A DNA stretch of 32,336 nt from a virus (taxonomy: Duplodnaviria > Heunggongvirae > Uroviricota > Caudoviricetes > Peduoviridae), in the IMG/VR virus record IMGVR_UViG_2974787824_000001, positions 1 to 32,336 of that record. One strand, 5' to 3'. The position numbers and the translations under genes were made by a program. This document shows, piece by piece, positions 10,201-32,141 of the stretch (its first letter is position 1; the number at the start of each line of letters is the position of its first letter). The notes beneath the pieces were generated by a model. That model was given only the letters and a program-made list of their open reading frames with translations, was not told where the DNA came from and did no database searches.

Positions 10201-10283
10201 TACGCTCTCCTTGAATGTTGTCTGGTGGTTCTACAAATGAATCCAGATAGCATAACTTTTATATATTGTGCAATCTCACATGC

Positions 10284-10919
10284 ATGAACACTCTCGCAAA
10301 TATTCAGGAACTCGCGCGCGCACTGCGCAACATGATTCGTACTGGCCTTGTCGTCGAAACCGACCTTAACGCCGGTCGCTGCCGTGTGCAGACCGGCGGC
10401 ATGTGCACCGACTGGCTTCAGTGGCTGACACATCGTGCCGGGCGTTCGCGCACATGGTGGGCACCTTCCGTGGGGGAACAGGTGCTGATTCTGGCCGTGG
10501 GCGGTGAACTCGACACGGCGTTCGTTCTGCCGGGGATTTATTCCGGCGATAACCCCGCGCCGTCTGCGTCGGCGGATGCCCTGCACATACGTTTCCCTGA
10601 CGGGGCGGTGATTGAGTATGAACCTGAAACCAGTGCACTGATGGTAAGCGGAATTAAAACGGCCAGCGTGACGGCTTCTGATTCTGTTACCGCCACGGTG
10701 CCGGTAGTCATGGTGAAAGCGTCAACCCGCATCACCCTGGACACCCCGGAGGTGGTCTGCACCAACAGACTGATTACCGGCACGCTGGAAGTACAGAAGG
10801 GCGGGACGATGCGCGGCAACATTGAACACACCGGCGGTGAACTCTCATCAAACGGTAAGGTACTGCATACCCATAAACACCCCGGCGACAGCGGCGGCAC
10901 AACCGGGGGACCTCTATGA
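10284..10919 (+). CDS. V: Baseplate spike / assembly protein (P2 gpV-like)
   Basis: Start at the internal Met (MNTLANIQELARALRNMIRTG...) gives about 211 aa; sequence recognised as P2 V. Confidence 0.9.
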   Translation: MNTLANIQELARALRNMIRTGLVVETDLNAGRCRVQTGGMCTDWLQWLTHRAGRSRTWWAPSVGEQVLILAVGGELDTAFVLPGIYSGDNPAPSASADALHIRFPDGAVIEYEPETSALMVSGIKTASVTASDSVTATVPVVMVKASTRITLDTPEVVCTNRLITGTLEVQKGGTMRGNIEHTGGELSSNGKVLHTHKHPGDSGGTTGGPL

Positions 10920-11263
10920 CTGCGCGTTATCTCGGAATGAATCGCAGTGATGGCCTGACTGTCACTGACCTTGAGCATATCAGCCAGAGTATCGGCGATA
11001 TCCTGCGCACACCGGTCGGCTCGCGGGTGATGCGTCGTGATTACGGCTCGTTGCTGGCGTCAATGATTGACCAGCCGCAGACTCCGGCGCTTGAGTTGCA
11101 GATTAAGGTCGCCTGTTACATGGCGGTGCTGAAATGGGAACCCCGCGTCACCCTGTCATCCGTCACCACTGAGCGCAGTTTTGACGGGCGAATGACGGTC
11201 ACGTTAACCGGCCAGCACAACGACACCGGCCAGCCACTTTCGTTAACCATTCCTGTGAGTTGA
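10916..11263 (+). CDS. W: Baseplate wedge protein (P2 gpW-like, T4 gp25-like)
   Basis: 115-aa ORF overlapping the V stop; sequence as in P2 W. Confidence 0.9.
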   Translation: MTARYLGMNRSDGLTVTDLEHISQSIGDILRTPVGSRVMRRDYGSLLASMIDQPQTPALELQIKVACYMAVLKWEPRVTLSSVTTERSFDGRMTVTLTGQHNDTGQPLSLTIPVS

Positions 11264-11267
11264 AACC

Positions 11268-12176
11268 ATGCCGATTATCGACCTGAACCAGCTACCCGCA
11301 CCGGATGTGGTCGAGGAGCTGGACTTTGAAACCATTCTCGCCGAACGCAAGGCGACACTGATTTCCCTTTACCCGGAAGACCAGCAGGAGGCGGTCGCCC
11401 GTACCCTGACGCTGGAATCCGAGCCTCTCGTCAAACTGCTGGAGGAAAATGCTTATCGTGAGCTTATCTGGCGTCAGCGTGTGAATGAGGCCGCACGGGC
11501 GGTGATGCTGGCCTGTGCCGCGGGTAATGACCTTGATGTGATTGGTGCCAATTACAACACCACGCGTCTGACTATCACCCCGGCAGATGATTTGACTATC
11601 CCGCCGACACCGGCAGTGATGGAGTCTGACACCGATTATCGTCTGCGTATTCAGCAGGCGTTTGAAGGCTTAAGCGTCGCCGGGTCGGTGGGAGCCTATC
11701 AGTATCATGGTCGCAGTGCCGACGGGCGTGTCGCGGATATCTCTGTCACCAGTCCGTCTCCGGCCTGTGTCACCATCTCTGTGCTGTCACGTGAAAATAA
11801 CGGTGTGGCATCTGAAGACCTGCTGGCTGTGGTGCGCAACGCCCTGAATGGCGAGGACGTCAGACCGGTGGCCGACCGTGTGACCGTGCAGTCTGCCGCC
11901 ATCGTTGAATACCAGATAAATGCCACGCTTTACCTTTACCCTGGCCCCGAAAGCGAACCCATTCGCGCTGCCGCCGTGAAAAAACTGGAAGCGTATATCA
12001 CGGCACAGCACCGGCTGGGGCGCGACATCCGTCTGTCTGCCATTTATGCCGCTTTGCATGTGGAAGGTGTGCAGCGTGTCGAACTGGCTGCACCACTGGC
12101 CGACATCGTGCTCAACAGTACGCAGGCGTCTTTCTGTACCGAATACCGCGTCGTGACCGGAGGCTCGGATGAGTGA
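11268..12176 (+). CDS. J: Baseplate assembly protein (P2 gpJ-like)
   Basis: 302-aa ORF; sequence and order as in P2 J. Confidence 0.9.
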   Translation: MPIIDLNQLPAPDVVEELDFETILAERKATLISLYPEDQQEAVARTLTLESEPLVKLLEENAYRELIWRQRVNEAARAVMLACAAGNDLDVIGANYNTTRLTITPADDLTIPPTPAVMESDTDYRLRIQQAFEGLSVAGSVGAYQYHGRSADGRVADISVTSPSPACVTISVLSRENNGVASEDLLAVVRNALNGEDVRPVADRVTVQSAAIVEYQINATLYLYPGPESEPIRAAAVKKLEAYITAQHRLGRDIRLSAIYAALHVEGVQRVELAAPLADIVLNSTQASFCTEYRVVTGGSDE

Positions 12177-12699
12177 TTCGCGACTGCTGCCGACCGGCTC
12201 ATCACCGCTTGAGGTCGCCGCCGCAAAAGCCTGTGCGGAAATTGAAAAAACGCCGGTCAGTATTCGTGAGCTGTGGAACCCGGACACCTGTCCGGCAAAT
12301 CTGCTGCCGTGGCTGGCGTGGGCGTTTTCGGTCGACAGGTGGGATGAAAAGTGGCCGGAAGCGACAAAACGCGCCGTTATCCGCGATGCGTATTTCATCC
12401 ACTGTCATAAAGGCACAATAGGTGCAATCCGGCGTGTGGTGGAGCCGCTCGGCTATCTCATCAACGTGACGGAGTGGTGGGAAAACAGTGACCCACCTGG
12501 CACCTTCCGGCTTGATATTGGTGTACTGGAAAGCGGCATCACAGAGGCAATGTATCAGGAAATGGAACGGCTGATTGCTGATGCCAAACCTGCAAGCCGC
12601 CACCTTATTGGCCTGAACATTACCCGGGACATTCCCGGCTACCTGTTCGCCGGTGGTGTGGCTTACGACGGCGATGTAATTACGGTTTACCACGGATAA
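12169..12699 (+). CDS. I: Baseplate protein (P2 gpI-like)
   Basis: 176-aa ORF overlapping the J stop; sequence as in P2 I. Confidence 0.88.
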   Translation: MSDSRLLPTGSSPLEVAAAKACAEIEKTPVSIRELWNPDTCPANLLPWLAWAFSVDRWDEKWPEATKRAVIRDAYFIHCHKGTIGAIRRVVEPLGYLINVTEWWENSDPPGTFRLDIGVLESGITEAMYQEMERLIADAKPASRHLIGLNITRDIPGYLFAGGVAYDGDVITVYHG

Positions 12700-12709
12700 G
12701 TGAGGAATA

Positions 12710-15004
12710 ATGAGCACAAAATTCAGAACCGTTATCACCACTGCCGGTGCAGCAAAGCTGGCAGCGGCAACCGCACCGGGAGGGCGGAAGGTCAACATTA
12801 CCACGATGGCCGTCGGGGATGGCGGTGGTAAATTGCCTGTCCCGGATGCCGGACAGACCGGGCTTATCCACGAAGTCTGGCGACATGCGCTGAACAAAAT
12901 CAGCCAGGACAAACGAAACAGTAATTATATTATCGCAGAGCTGGTTATTCCGCCGGAGGTGGGCGGTTTCTGGATGCGTGAGCTTGGCCTGTACGATGAT
13001 GCGGGAACGTTAATTGCTGTGGCGAACATGGCCGAAAGTTATAAGCCAGCTCTTGCCGAAGGCTCAGGGCGTTCGCAGACCTGCCGCATGGTCATTATCG
13101 TCAGCAGTGTGGCCTCAGTGGAGCTGACCATTGACACCACAACGGTGATGGCGACGCAGGATTACGTTGATGACAAAATTGCAGAACATGAACAGTCACG
13201 ACGTCACCCGGACGCCTCGCTGACCGCAAAAGGTTTTACTCAGTTAAGCAGTGCGACCAACAGCACGTCTGAAACACTGGCTGCAACGCCAAAGGCGGTA
13301 AAGGCCGCATATGACCTTGCTAACGGGAAATATACCGCACAGGACGCCACCACAGCACGAAAAGGCCTTGTCCAGCTCAGTAGTGCCACCAACAGCACGT
13401 CTGAAACGCTCGCCGCAACACCAAAAGCGGTAAAAGCAGCATATGACCTTGCTAACGGGAAATATACCGCACAGGACGCCACCACAGCGCGAAAAGGCCT
13501 TGTTCAGCTCAGTAGCGCCACCAACAGCGATTCTGAAACGCTGGCCGCAACGCCAAAGGCGGTAAAGGTCGCGTATGACCTTGCTAACGGGAAATACACT
13601 GCACAGGATGCCACCACCGCGCGAAAAGGTCTTGTCCAGCTCAGTAGCGCCACCAACAGTGATTCTGAAACACTGGCCGCAACACCAAAAGCGGTGAAGT
13701 CTGCCTATGACAATGCTGAAAAACGTCTTCAGAAAGATCAGAACGGTGCGGATATTCCGGGAAAGGATACCTTCACGAAAAATATCGGTGCCTGTCGTGC
13801 TTATAGCGGCGCTTTGAGCACTGAAGCCGGAAACTGGACAACCGCTCAGTTTATTGAATGGCTGGATTCCCGTGGTGCATTTAATCATCCGTACTGGATG
13901 TGCAAAGGCTCCTGGTCATATGCAAATAACAAAATCATTACGGATACCGGATGTGGTGATATCCACCTGGCTGGTTGTGTCGTCGAGGTCATGGGAACAA
14001 AATCTGCAATCACTATTCGAGTGACCACGCCGACAACATCAAGCGGTGGCGGTACAACCAGCGCGCAATTCACTTACATTAATCATGGGGACGGCTACTC
14101 CCCCGGCTGGCGTCGTGACTGGAATCGTCAGGGCGACGCAATGACCGGAACGATTAATCAGGATGGCGGAAGCCAGAATGCCTATATGTCTACGGCCTTA
14201 TGTTCAGGCACCAGAGGCGGCAAAAAATATCTCAGAAAGTTTCGTGGTGGAGAAGGAGACACTATCTGGCATGAAACAGTGCAGGGCGGGGTAATTCGCT
14301 GGGCGACAGGAAACTATGACGCTCAGGAAGAATTATCACTCAGCTCCGCTTATGGTCTCCGTTCTAGAGGTGAAATTACATCACTCAGTGCTAATGGTCT
14401 GCGCATTGCTTATGGCAATTATGGATTCTTTATCAGGAATGATGGTGGCAGCACATATTTAATGCTGACGGCCTCTGGTGATAAATTTGGGACATGGAAC
14501 GGTTTAAGGCCGCTGACTATCAATAACGCTAATGGCGGAGTGTCAATGGGGCATGGCCTGAGTGTTACTGGTGATATTGCCTCAAGTACCAAAGTACGTG
14601 CCGGTAGCGGGAAAAAATTCACGGTCAGCAGCAGTAATACATCCACGAAGGAAGCCGCATTCAATTTGTGGGGAAACTCAAGTCGTCCGGTGGTGGCTGA
14701 ATTAGGTGATGATGCAGGCTGGCATTTTTACAGTCAGAGAAATACAGATAACAGCATCACTTTTGCTGTTAACGGTCAGGTATCACCATCTAACTATAGT
14801 AATTTTGATTCCCGTTATGTACGCGATATCCGGCTTGGGACTCGAGTTGTCCAGACCATGCAGAAAGGGGTGATGTATGAGAAAGCAGGGCACGTAATTA
14901 CCGGGCTTGGTATTGTCGGTGAAGTCGATGGTGATGATCCCGCAGTATTCAGACCAATACAAAAATACATCAATGGCACATGGTATAACGTCGCACAGGT
15001 GTAA
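12710..15004 (+). CDS. H: Tail fibre protein (P2 gpH-like) with expanded internal repeats and a divergent C-terminal receptor-binding region
   Basis: 764-aa ORF; conserved P2-like N-terminus (MSTKFRTVITTAGAAKLAAA...), internal 44-aa repeats, AT-richer C-terminal half. Longer than the roughly 669 aa I recall for P2 H. Confidence 0.88.
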   Translation: MSTKFRTVITTAGAAKLAAATAPGGRKVNITTMAVGDGGGKLPVPDAGQTGLIHEVWRHALNKISQDKRNSNYIIAELVIPPEVGGFWMRELGLYDDAGTLIAVANMAESYKPALAEGSGRSQTCRMVIIVSSVASVELTIDTTTVMATQDYVDDKIAEHEQSRRHPDASLTAKGFTQLSSATNSTSETLAATPKAVKAAYDLANGKYTAQDATTARKGLVQLSSATNSTSETLAATPKAVKAAYDLANGKYTAQDATTARKGLVQLSSATNSDSETLAATPKAVKVAYDLANGKYTAQDATTARKGLVQLSSATNSDSETLAATPKAVKSAYDNAEKRLQKDQNGADIPGKDTFTKNIGACRAYSGALSTEAGNWTTAQFIEWLDSRGAFNHPYWMCKGSWSYANNKIITDTGCGDIHLAGCVVEVMGTKSAITIRVTTPTTSSGGGTTSAQFTYINHGDGYSPGWRRDWNRQGDAMTGTINQDGGSQNAYMSTALCSGTRGGKKYLRKFRGGEGDTIWHETVQGGVIRWATGNYDAQEELSLSSAYGLRSRGEITSLSANGLRIAYGNYGFFIRNDGGSTYLMLTASGDKFGTWNGLRPLTINNANGGVSMGHGLSVTGDIASSTKVRAGSGKKFTVSSSNTSTKEAAFNLWGNSSRPVVAELGDDAGWHFYSQRNTDNSITFAVNGQVSPSNYSNFDSRYVRDIRLGTRVVQTMQKGVMYEKAGHVITGLGIVGEVDGDDPAVFRPIQKYINGTWYNVAQV
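13229..13711 (+). repeat. About 3.7 tandem copies of a 132-bp (44-aa) in-frame repeat inside H
   Basis: Repeat unit KG(F/L)(T/V)QLSSATNS(T/D)SETLAATPKAVK(A/V/S)AYDLANGKYTAQDATTAR, with copies starting at 13229, 13361, 13493 and 13625 (last one partial). Confidence 0.9.
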
Positions 15005-15007
15005 TTT

Positions 15008-15532
15008 ATGCAGCATTTAAAAAATATTACTGCGGGTAATCCAAAAACTGTTGCCCAATATCAACTGACAAAAAATTTTGATGTTATCTGGTTATGGTCC
15101 GAAGAGGGAAAAAACTGGTATGAGGAAGTAAGTAATTTTCAGGAAGACACGATAAAGATTGTTTACGACGAGAATAATATAATTGTCGGCATCACCAGAG
15201 ATGCTTCAACGCTTAACCCTGAAGGTTTTAGCGTTGTCGAGGTTCCTGATATTACCGCCAACCGACGTGCGGATGACTCAGGTAAATGGATGTTTAAGGA
15301 TGGTGCCGTGATTAAGCGGATTTATACGACAGACGAACAGCAGCAACTGGCAGAATCACAAAAGGCAACTTTACTTTCCGAAGCTGAATCCGTGATTTTG
15401 CCGCTGGAGCGCGCTGTCAGGCTGAATATGGCAACAGATGAGGAGCGCAGCCGACTGGAAGCATGGGAACGCTACAGCGTTCTGGTCAGTCGGGTGGATC
15501 CTGCAAATCCCGAATGGCCGGAAATGCCGTAA
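15008..15532 (+). CDS. G: Tail fibre assembly chaperone (P2 gpG-like)
   Basis: 174-aa ORF immediately after H; resembles the tail fibre assembly protein family of P2 and relatives, with the usual variable region. Confidence 0.8.
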
Positions 15533-15933: not shown

Positions 15934-17283
15934 TTATTCCGTTTTATATATCATAGTAGTCGATTGGAGAATATAGTTTCTGGGAATGTATTCTTCAAAG
16001 TGTTCGTCCTTTTTAAATACATGAACTACATTTGGGAATAATTGATAGTCAACAGGGTGTATAGCGTTTGGATTATGGTACATGTATATGGCTGTACACC
16101 ATGGTTCTTGATAGTTAGGGTCACTTACATCGGCTGAAAATGGATGTGGGTCTGCATCCTGATCAGTTTTAACACCACTGACGTACACTTTGAATCCACT
16201 CGCCTCTACACCTGCAAGAATTCCCATCCGGTTAAACTTAGGTATGGTTGCTTGAGTAGTGAGTAAAACGGCAGAAACATAATTATTTTGTTCTGAGCCA
16301 AAAAAGTTCGACTTGATACTTCTATTTTCATCTGTATGTCTTTCAATAGAAATGCCTGACTCAATATCAATCCCGTACAAATAGCTATGCAAGGCTTCGC
16401 TTGAGAAGGCCATGGACATTCTTTTTGAATAATCCTGCATTGCTATGACAAATGGTTTGTTCTTTGTATGGTTGAGTTCCCAGTAATGAACTTTCTCTGG
16501 CTCAGGGCAATGCCGGACTTTTTTTAATAAACTTCTTGCAAACTTAAAAGGCATGACATTTAGAACATGTTTTCTTAATTCATCCATCTGCTCATCGTTA
16601 ATGACTTTTCTTTCAAGAGGGGCTTCTGCTTCAGCAATGCTTACAGCCTCTACAGCAATTTCCACTCCAAATTTAGATAGCAGAAAATCTGGTTGATTGT
16701 ATTCTCTATTCATTTCAAAGTCGAGTTCATAAAATACAGCGTTCAAATATAATTCAAATAGCCTTGAATTAAATGCATCACTTTGAAAATCCCTTATAAA
16801 TATTCCATCAGGATCTTTGAACCAGTATGCAAGTTCCTCAAGAACAATATATGCAGGGAAATGAAGAGGGTCTTCGAGGAGCATTTTTATATAAACATTC
16901 CTTTTTTTCTCTGGGACTTTACTCAAGAATAATGAAAAAGGTTTGGTTGATTCATCGCCTTGCATGAATGTACCGTTTTGGTGCTGCGCCAGCATCTTTG
17001 GTATGTCATCGTTTAAATTATTAAGCAAGACATCCATTGAGTCAAATGAAGCCAAGACGTTTATTGCTCTGAATTTTTTATCTAAATCCCGACCCAATAC
17101 TATTGCGTTAAAATCTTTATCAATATTGCATATGATTATTGTGGATAACAATGTTATCCCATTCCCCTCATATTTAAACCAGCGTATCTCCTCAGAAAAT
17201 GTCTTAAGGTAAGGTGAGCGACCGTAAAAATAAATATCAAATTGTTCTTTGCTGATCTCACTGAAGTGTAATCCTGCGTTCAT
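15934..17283 (-). CDS. Hypothetical protein; AT-rich cargo gene at the G/FI (Z/fun) position - candidate anti-phage defence protein
   Basis: 449-aa leftward ORF interrupting rightward late genes, flanked by about 400 bp and 470 bp of non-coding DNA; AT-rich. No Walker A, HUH, reverse-transcriptase or obvious nuclease motif seen by eye. Confidence 0.75.
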   Translation of the reverse strand: MNAGLHFSEISKEQFDIYFYGRSPYLKTFSEEIRWFKYEGNGITLLSTIIICNIDKDFNAIVLGRDLDKKFRAINVLASFDSMDVLLNNLNDDIPKMLAQHQNGTFMQGDESTKPFSLFLSKVPEKKRNVYIKMLLEDPLHFPAYIVLEELAYWFKDPDGIFIRDFQSDAFNSRLFELYLNAVFYELDFEMNREYNQPDFLLSKFGVEIAVEAVSIAEAEAPLERKVINDEQMDELRKHVLNVMPFKFARSLLKKVRHCPEPEKVHYWELNHTKNKPFVIAMQDYSKRMSMAFSSEALHSYLYGIDIESGISIERHTDENRSIKSNFFGSEQNNYVSAVLLTTQATIPKFNRMGILAGVEASGFKVYVSGVKTDQDADPHPFSADVSDPNYQEPWCTAIYMYHNPNAIHPVDYQLFPNVVHVFKKDEHFEEYIPRNYILQSTTMIYKTE

Positions 17284-31199: not shown

Positions 31200-32141
31200 T
31201 TAAGTTAATTTTAATGAATGGTACTCTATCGAGCTGATTGTAGATGCGATATATTTACGATCATTTACAGAGAGTATTGCCGCTAGTAGACGACATACCA
31301 GAGCCTGCATTTGTAGCAATATATCGCTACCATATTGACAATCATTGATACTAGAGAAACCAAGCGGTTGCCCATTAAAAATGGCTTCATGAAAATTATC
31401 ATTGCGTATAACTGAAACATTACATTCATCTGTTGCCCATGACGGGATTTTTACACCGTAATTTTCGCACATCCAATATACTCTATTTTGATGAGATGGT
31501 TTTTTCTCTTTAATGACTTTATCCCTTTCATCCCATGCTATAGCAAAACAGCAATCAAGAGCCATATAAAGATACTGGAATTTCTCAAAGGAAAGGTATA
31601 GTGGGTTATGTGATAGGAATAGGGAGTGTATCACCGCAGCTATTCTTTTAATGGAGCGATCATCTTTTTGTTTGTCTTTTATATAGTTAAGTGCTAGCTC
31701 TATTACTTCTTTTTCAGAGCATCCAACGAGAATAAAGTCAGTTAACTTAGTGGGCTTGATAGTGGTTGCATCAAGAAAACCAGCGTCAGTGGTTGTCAAT
31801 CTTATACCCTTGAAAAAAGAGAGGCACCACACAACAAAGTTGAGAGTTTCTAACGAGGATGTGTTTTTTAATTTTAGTGTGTGCGTTTTGGGCATGCCGA
31901 ATACTCGGTAACTATAAGGCATTGTGCATGTGTCACCATTAAGGTTATATACCTTTCGATTCCCAGGGTATATCCAACCATTAACAACGTTTTTATCATT
32001 GTTAATACGTTCCACTTTCTCAATAAGACCGGGTAAAGTACGCAAAGAAAATTGTTCAGTCTCAATGTTAACTTCTACTGGATAGTATCCAAACTCCGAA
32101 ATAATCTCATTTGGTTGCTGTTCATCAACTTCACCTTGCAT
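31200..32141 (-). CDS. Hypothetical protein; AT-rich cargo gene at the tin/old position - candidate anti-phage defence protein
   Basis: 313-aa leftward ORF next to the right genome end, where P2 carries tin and old. AT-rich with A/T-biased codons. No Walker A motif, so not an Old-type ATPase; no motif recognised by eye. Confidence 0.75.
   Translation of the reverse strand: MQGEVDEQQPNEIISEFGYYPVEVNIETEQFSLRTLPGLIEKVERINNDKNVVNGWIYPGNRKVYNLNGDTCTMPYSYRVFGMPKTHTLKLKNTSSLETLNFVVWCLSFFKGIRLTTTDAGFLDATTIKPTKLTDFILVGCSEKEVIELALNYIKDKQKDDRSIKRIAAVIHSLFLSHNPLYLSFEKFQYLYMALDCCFAIAWDERDKVIKEKKPSHQNRVYWMCENYGVKIPSWATDECNVSVIRNDNFHEAIFNGQPLGFSSINDCQYGSDILLQMQALVCRLLAAILSVNDRKYIASTISSIEYHSLKLT

Follow-up and report, generated by a model that had tools for sequence, protein, structure and literature searches.

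The 132-bp tandem repeat in the tail fibre gene H of this P2-like phage is very probably an ordinary array of the Pfam repeat family PF03406 in the proximal shaft of gpH, composed of old units, belonging to a family that turns over by unequal recombination and acting as a putative spacer and homology joint. It consists of three complete 44-aa units followed by a single 29-aa core. In the following, the window denotes the whole stretch of DNA that was analysed (32,336 nucleotides).

The repeat is contained in an ORF of 764 aa. This ORF is gene H, mosaic in its distal half, of a P2-like member of Peduovirus that is essentially Yersinia phage VB-YPM-4. The ORFs at 10266–15532 are collinear with the annotated P2 genes V, W, J, I, H and G, and over 86% of the first 25 kb the window is 96% identical to P2. 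Over the first ~690 nt, comprising the N-terminal domain and the repeats that P2 itself contains, H shares 92–100% of its nucleotides with P2 H, and the C-terminal region retains 63–85% nucleotide identity to the P2 H 3' end. Collinear genes annotated as H or tail fibre are also found in P37, vB_YpM_115 and E. coli ETEC1721. The assignment as a P2-type tail fibre gene H made in the first-pass annotation is therefore supported by the PF12571 N-terminus, the V-W-J-I-H-G synteny and the Caudo_TAP gene next to it. By homology, gpH would form a trimeric tail fibre that determines adsorption. The features of the region are as follows:

12710–15004, plus strand: gene H, P2-type tail fibre protein of 764 aa (ORF; Pfam PF12571, four times PF03406, PF21446)
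12710–13162, plus strand: N-terminal tail-collar/baseplate-attachment domain, aa 1–151 (PF12571 Phage_tail_fib, E 1.7e-58)
13229–13360, plus strand: repeat unit 1, KGFTQLSSATNSTSETLAATPKAVKAAYDLANGKYTAQDATTAR, aa 174–217
13361–13492, plus strand: repeat unit 2, aa 218–261 (identity 87% with unit 1, 88% with unit 3)
13493–13624, plus strand: repeat unit 3, aa 262–305
13625–13711, plus strand: repeat unit 4, core only (29 aa) with the final residues ATPKAVKSAYD, aa 306–334
13706–14170, plus strand: distal module resembling the phage Mu S' (G(-)) fibre, aa 333–487 (PDB 8ju3_A)
13712–13759, plus strand: junction segment NAEKRLQKDQNGADIP, second mosaic joint, with distal continuations diverging after "NGADIP"
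14351–14998, plus strand: C-terminal region similar to Mu S and P2 H, aa 548–763 (PDB 5yvq_A, 156 bits)
15008–15532, plus strand: gene G, tail fibre assembly chaperone (PF02413 Caudo_TAP, E 2.8e-34), at the same position as P2 G

When the PDB was searched with phmmer, H aa 333–487 aligned to residues 176–332 of 8ju3_A with 238 bits. This stretch resembles the variable part of Mu S', the G(-) host-range form, a likeness that may bear on receptor specificity. A trimerisation domain of the T4 gp34 type (PF21446) covers aa 541–604 (E 1.2e-25). We also considered an antisense ORF of 214 aa at 13244–13888 on the minus strand as an overlapping gene and rejected it, as no PHROG match was obtained; an 81-aa ORF nested within it at 13240–13485 likewise had no PHROG match. 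Since the antisense ORF overlaps the array over most of its length, it would most simply be a by-product of the repeat.

Elsewhere in the window we noticed two ORFs on the minus strand. The one at 15934–17283 (449 aa) gave no Pfam hit and a full-length match to the PADLOC anti-phage defence model PD-T7-1 (E 1.5e-156). It is located between G and FI, where P2 has its non-essential Z/fun gene. This site is a known cargo hotspot and is occupied by other genes in vB_YpM_115, P37 and E. coli ETEC1721. The other, at 31200–32141 near the right end (313 aa), matched neither Pfam nor PADLOC. In the corresponding part of its genome P2 presumably carries accessory genes (old/tin).

Tandem Repeats Finder detected a single strong array in the window (13256–13711, period 132, 3.5 copies, 89% matches, no indels, score 695). 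Placed in codon register the array extends over 13229–13711, corresponding to 483 bp or 3.66 units of 44 aa in frame with gene H, with units starting at 13229, 13361, 13493 and 13625 (aa 174, 218, 262 and 306 of the ORF). Both approaches together confirm the size, frame, coordinates and copy number (about 3.7) of the 132-bp in-frame repeat that had been described from the sequence. Unit similarity stops at 13711 (D334): in unit 4 the 45-nt linker is replaced by unrelated sequence (24–27% identity). Variation of the peptide includes the previously listed substitutions, which fall on unit positions 13 (T/D) and 26 (A/V/S), and unit 1 reads FT where the other units read LV. The Pfam family PF03406 (Phage_fiber_2) was found in four stretches within aa 170–334 (253.9 bits against a cut-off of 22, E 4.3e-77). 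All four units match the model end to end, the best stretch covering model positions 1–41 of 42. As in other members of the family, units of about 40 residues are thus arranged in tandem within a tail fibre protein, here with a period of 44 aa, behind a PF12571 N-terminus and with a Caudo_TAP gene downstream.

To what extent the array is expanded depends on the reference. Motif counts are two for P2 H, three for P37 H and four for the window. With 764 aa the protein is indeed longer than P2 H (669 aa), as the first-pass annotation had supposed, and two extra units supply 88 of the 95 additional residues. Among the 80 nearest IMG/VR loci, a sample biased by its choice for closeness to the query N-terminus, we counted two, three, four and five motifs in 19, 4, 45 and 10 loci, respectively. 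Bacterial genomes sampled with one genome per species (Enterobacteriaceae species) gave counts of 1–4, and the best 120 protein clusters, which were ranked by the four-copy query and are therefore biased towards query-like arrays, gave 3–6. The period is 44 aa in all these samples, so that copy number varies between 1 and 6 among relatives in exact 44-aa steps. The term "expanded" consequently applies relative to the two motifs of P2 only and not in general, as four is the commonest count in the nearest loci. A library-wide profile search found the unit in 3775 cluster representatives, and fibres on other backbones contain up to 11–12 motifs of nearly the same peptide. Three proteins with such backbones (P0121–P0123) have 7–12 motifs in which the 44-aa spacing alternates with a 60-aa spacing containing "APSSHTHPWNQITGVPTASLTA", a second linker type that is absent from the window. 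These comparisons, although biased, show that four copies are a common state, well below the maximum and no unusual expansion; the allele is also old and stable.

We then turned to the divergence between the units. Pairwise, full units share 111–116 of 132 nt (84–88%), and the 87-nt cores are 77–87% identical. Units had been described as near-identical at the DNA level; this holds true for the peptides only. Per pair of units 11–13 codons differ synonymously versus 2–4 non-synonymously, resulting in dS values of 0.52–1.16 and dN values of 0.03–0.12 (Nei-Gojobori). The longest in-register exact run amounts to 50 nt between units 1 and 2 and does not exceed 23 nt in any other pair. In the orthologous N-terminal domain the window differs from vB_YpM_115 and P2 by a dS of 0.06–0.10 (0.10 for P2 and 0.07 for vB_YpM_115), 5–10 times less than the units differ from one another. 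The dN/dS ratio of the units (~0.07–0.13) equals that of the N-terminal domain (0.13 in comparison to P2 and 0.06 in comparison to P37).

The order of the units is conserved as well, and many related prophages have a recognisable orthologue of each unit in the corresponding position. In 40 of the 45 four-copy alleles from the nearest IMG/VR loci the units follow each other as 1-2-3-4. Alleles with three copies show the order 1-2-4 or 1-3-4 and those with five copies 1-2-3-3-4 or 1-2-2-3-4; P37 represents 1-2-4, and none of its units matches unit 3 best. Mean identity is 0.92–0.95 for units on the orthologous diagonal versus 0.76–0.87 for paralogous comparisons, and unit 1 orthologues show a mean identity of 95% across 46 four-copy relatives. 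The units are therefore old, diverged paralogues rather than fresh copies, and purifying selection acts on them as it does on the remainder of H: the high dS between units, the dN/dS equal to that of the N-terminal domain and the conserved order together mark the array as an old and selectively maintained allele.

Recent duplications were observed in relatives. Some five-copy relatives have neighbouring units with 0.97–0.99 identity, and units of Buttiauxella arrays are 0.81–0.88 identical within the array versus 0.75–0.78 to the units of the window. Together with the exact 44-aa steps in copy number, the 97–99% identical neighbours show that unequal homologous recombination adds units to arrays and removes them. 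The proneness to recombinational expansion and contraction that had been proposed for the repeat thus applies to the family, with its 1 to 6 copies and near-identical neighbours in some members, but not to the present allele, which is old and conserved in order. A Chi site (GCTGGTGG) as a stimulator of recombination was not present in the window.

In order to locate mosaic breakpoints, H genes of relatives were compared to the window by sliding-window identity. P37 is 63–87% identical up to ~13190–13220 and 93–100% identical from unit 1 onward. For P2 the situation is reversed: the high identity described above extends up to ~13400 and falls to ~30% past the last ATPKAVK of P2. Three other distal classes diverge at ~13520, ~13670 and ~13760, and in an H gene of the DKGRF class (locus L007) identity to the window collapses at ~13760. 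Close relatives show three different distal continuations after "NGADIP", and at least 12 different continuations occur directly after the last ATPKAVK or following NGADIP. In six-copy alleles the array is joined to a different N-terminal domain. In related H genes breakpoints hence cluster at both edges of the array and at the "NGADIP" segment. This clustering could in part reflect selection on functional chimeras and not preferential recombination at the array. An exchange of modules agrees with the classical picture of tail fibre mosaicism, as reportedly drawn by Haggard-Ljungquist et al. 1992 and Sandmeier 1994. It also agrees with L-413C gpH having been described as a mosaic derived from P2 (PMC7460101).

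The array is situated between the N-terminal baseplate-attachment domain and the mosaic distal region that would bind the receptor, and the assembly chaperone is the product of gene G. In the trimeric shaft each unit would be one additional structural module, whereby copy number may set the length or flexibility of the fibre, and the conserved motif may provide a patch of homology at which N-terminal and receptor-binding modules are swapped. Such a role as shaft spacer and recombination joint is suggested by the breakpoints at the array and by a motif that is common to Mu S and other fibre backbones. Structure prediction was informative for the N-terminal domain only. In an AlphaFold2 monomer model of H aa 1–353 (alignment of 36 sequences) this domain reaches a pLDDT of 70–90; in the array the pLDDT is 35–53, rendering the model unusable there, and all that recurs from unit to unit is a helix of low confidence over PKAVKAAYDLA. 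When compared to the PDB with Foldseek, the N-terminal domain matched the Haloferax tailed virus 1 tail (9h4p) and, less well, the tail fibres of phage 7-7-1 (9rkv, a weak hit), and the array had no match. Searching PDB sequences with the array and with a profile built from 20 unit sequences, we found the motif in no solved chain other than Mu S/S'. Our literature search yielded neither a described PF03406 structure nor an effect of PF03406 copy number on fibre length or host range; a 2012 paper gives the function of PF03406 as unknown, and a modelling paper from 2021 counts it among the families without known structure.

Repeats may cause errors in assembly, as had been noted for collapse in short-read data, and the copy number in the window might have been collapsed or inflated. 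The nearest public record, Yersinia phage VB-YPM-4 (ON146439.1, positions 27–32271), is ~100% identical to the window, and the sole length difference of 91 bp (32245 + 91 = 32336) lies inside the array: ON146439.1 lacks 53 bp (window ~13247–13299) and 38 bp (~13373–13410) in units 1 and 2. Sequence errors associated with the repeat hence do occur. P2-type phages are understood to need H for adsorption. Neither gap corresponds to a whole unit, and the missing bases disrupt the reading frame of this gene, although the phage had been isolated on Y. pestis; H is left annotated as two "hypothetical proteins" (L001, 3001–5204). ON146439.1 is therefore likelier to be in error than the window and probably carries a 91-bp sequence error that splits H. 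In the window H is an intact ORF, and the same four-unit gene of 2295 nt is present collinearly, with 96.1% nucleotide identity, in the independent phages vB_YpM_115 and 117. Of 5426 complete E. coli genomes 174 hold at least 80% of the H gene; the best matches are full-length, in a single collinear piece and 97–98.5% identical, and one of them (ETEC1721), situated in a P2-like prophage, carries the annotation of an intact tail fibre protein. In addition, the same unit order recurs in 40 IMG/VR loci, and since any two units are distinguished by at least 16 of their 132 positions, reads of at least 100 nt can place them. Although many database homologues are partial, with contigs ending inside the gene, a wrong copy number in the window is thus extremely unlikely, and the concern about an artefact or collapse can be dismissed on the grounds of its reproduction in complete chromosomes and two phage genomes. 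For the homologues themselves we noticed that most of P0001–P0120 are flagged "partial", and that E. coli genomes with any H match are matched at a median of 2 places and at up to 16. Assemblies from short reads evidently break at H, probably owing to multi-copy prophage fibres as much as to the internal repeat. A true copy number might still be a recent and unstable one, with the array acting as a contingency-type repeat that changes at high frequency in the phage lineage. The polymorphism of the family, the 97–99% identical neighbouring units of some relatives and the 50-nt run in units 1–2, which is enough for RecA-dependent exchange, are compatible with this. Units that are identical or nearly so at the DNA level, as a contingency repeat would contain, are not found here, where no pair exceeds 88% identity; the dS between units is 5–10 times that of the N-terminal domain in comparison to P2, and the order 1-2-3-4 is kept across dozens of independent prophages. 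We therefore regard an unstable expansion as very improbable.

Two further readings concern the function of the array. Repeated carbohydrate-binding modules occur in some phage fibres, and the units might be lectin-like receptor-binding modules, whose extra copies raise avidity for the host surface instead of serving as spacers. This is improbable in view of near-identical units being paired with many different distal and N-terminal domains, and of the motif in Mu being located in the part common to S and S', upstream of their divergence. Furthermore, determinants of host range in P2-like fibres have been mapped near the C-terminus (HR2, aa 716–746 in P88; PMC5285337). Alternatively, copy number might be an adaptive "length dial", in which unequal crossing-over tunes the reach of the tip through O-antigen or capsule, alleles with 1–6 copies track the host surface and synonymous divergence stabilises a favoured length. 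As units and N-terminal domain have the same dN/dS, old duplication followed by purifying selection explains the same numbers, and we consider the adaptive reading unlikely. An ordinary PF03406 array with a role as spacer and joint remains our preferred interpretation.

Among the closest known counterparts is P2 gpH (AF063097), which has the same position in V-W-J-I-H-G, a repeat unit that likewise starts at aa 174, and a related C-terminus of ~130 aa. It differs in having two motifs (one full unit and a core) instead of four, and in its middle part (~aa 240–630), which is unrelated to that of the window with its resemblance to Mu S' and T4 gp34-type domains. The Yersinia phages vB_YpM_115/117 share the architecture of 764 aa with four units. 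P37 has the same distal part and three units, and its divergent N-terminal module is joined at the start of the array. In Mu S/S' (PDB 5yvq, 9ki1, 8ju3) the motif (residues 117–150) is followed by the "NGADIP" segment just upstream of the point at which S and S' diverge, and the window resembles the S' variable part at aa 333–487 and the S C-terminus at aa 548–763. In contrast to the window, Mu S/S' possess a single motif and no array as well as a different N-terminal domain, and the distal part of the Mu fibre is switched by inversion of the G segment. The "phage tail fibre repeat" PF03406 was first noted in lambda Stf and in E. coli side tail fibres of the StfR type. Compared to this family there is no difference in kind: the window represents a sub-type with a fixed 44-aa period, whereas other PF03406 fibres alternate 44-aa and 60-aa spacings.

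Overall, the feature is known in kind: Pfam already lists the repeat family, H is P2's textbook tail fibre gene, and four copies are a common allele. The H gene of the window can be trusted as assembled, and the probable error in ON146439.1 would mislead work on receptor-binding proteins of Yersinia pestis phages. The natural joints of the gene, i.e. the start of unit 1, the ATPKAVK of the last unit and NGADIP, could serve as guides when chimeric P2-type fibres are designed.
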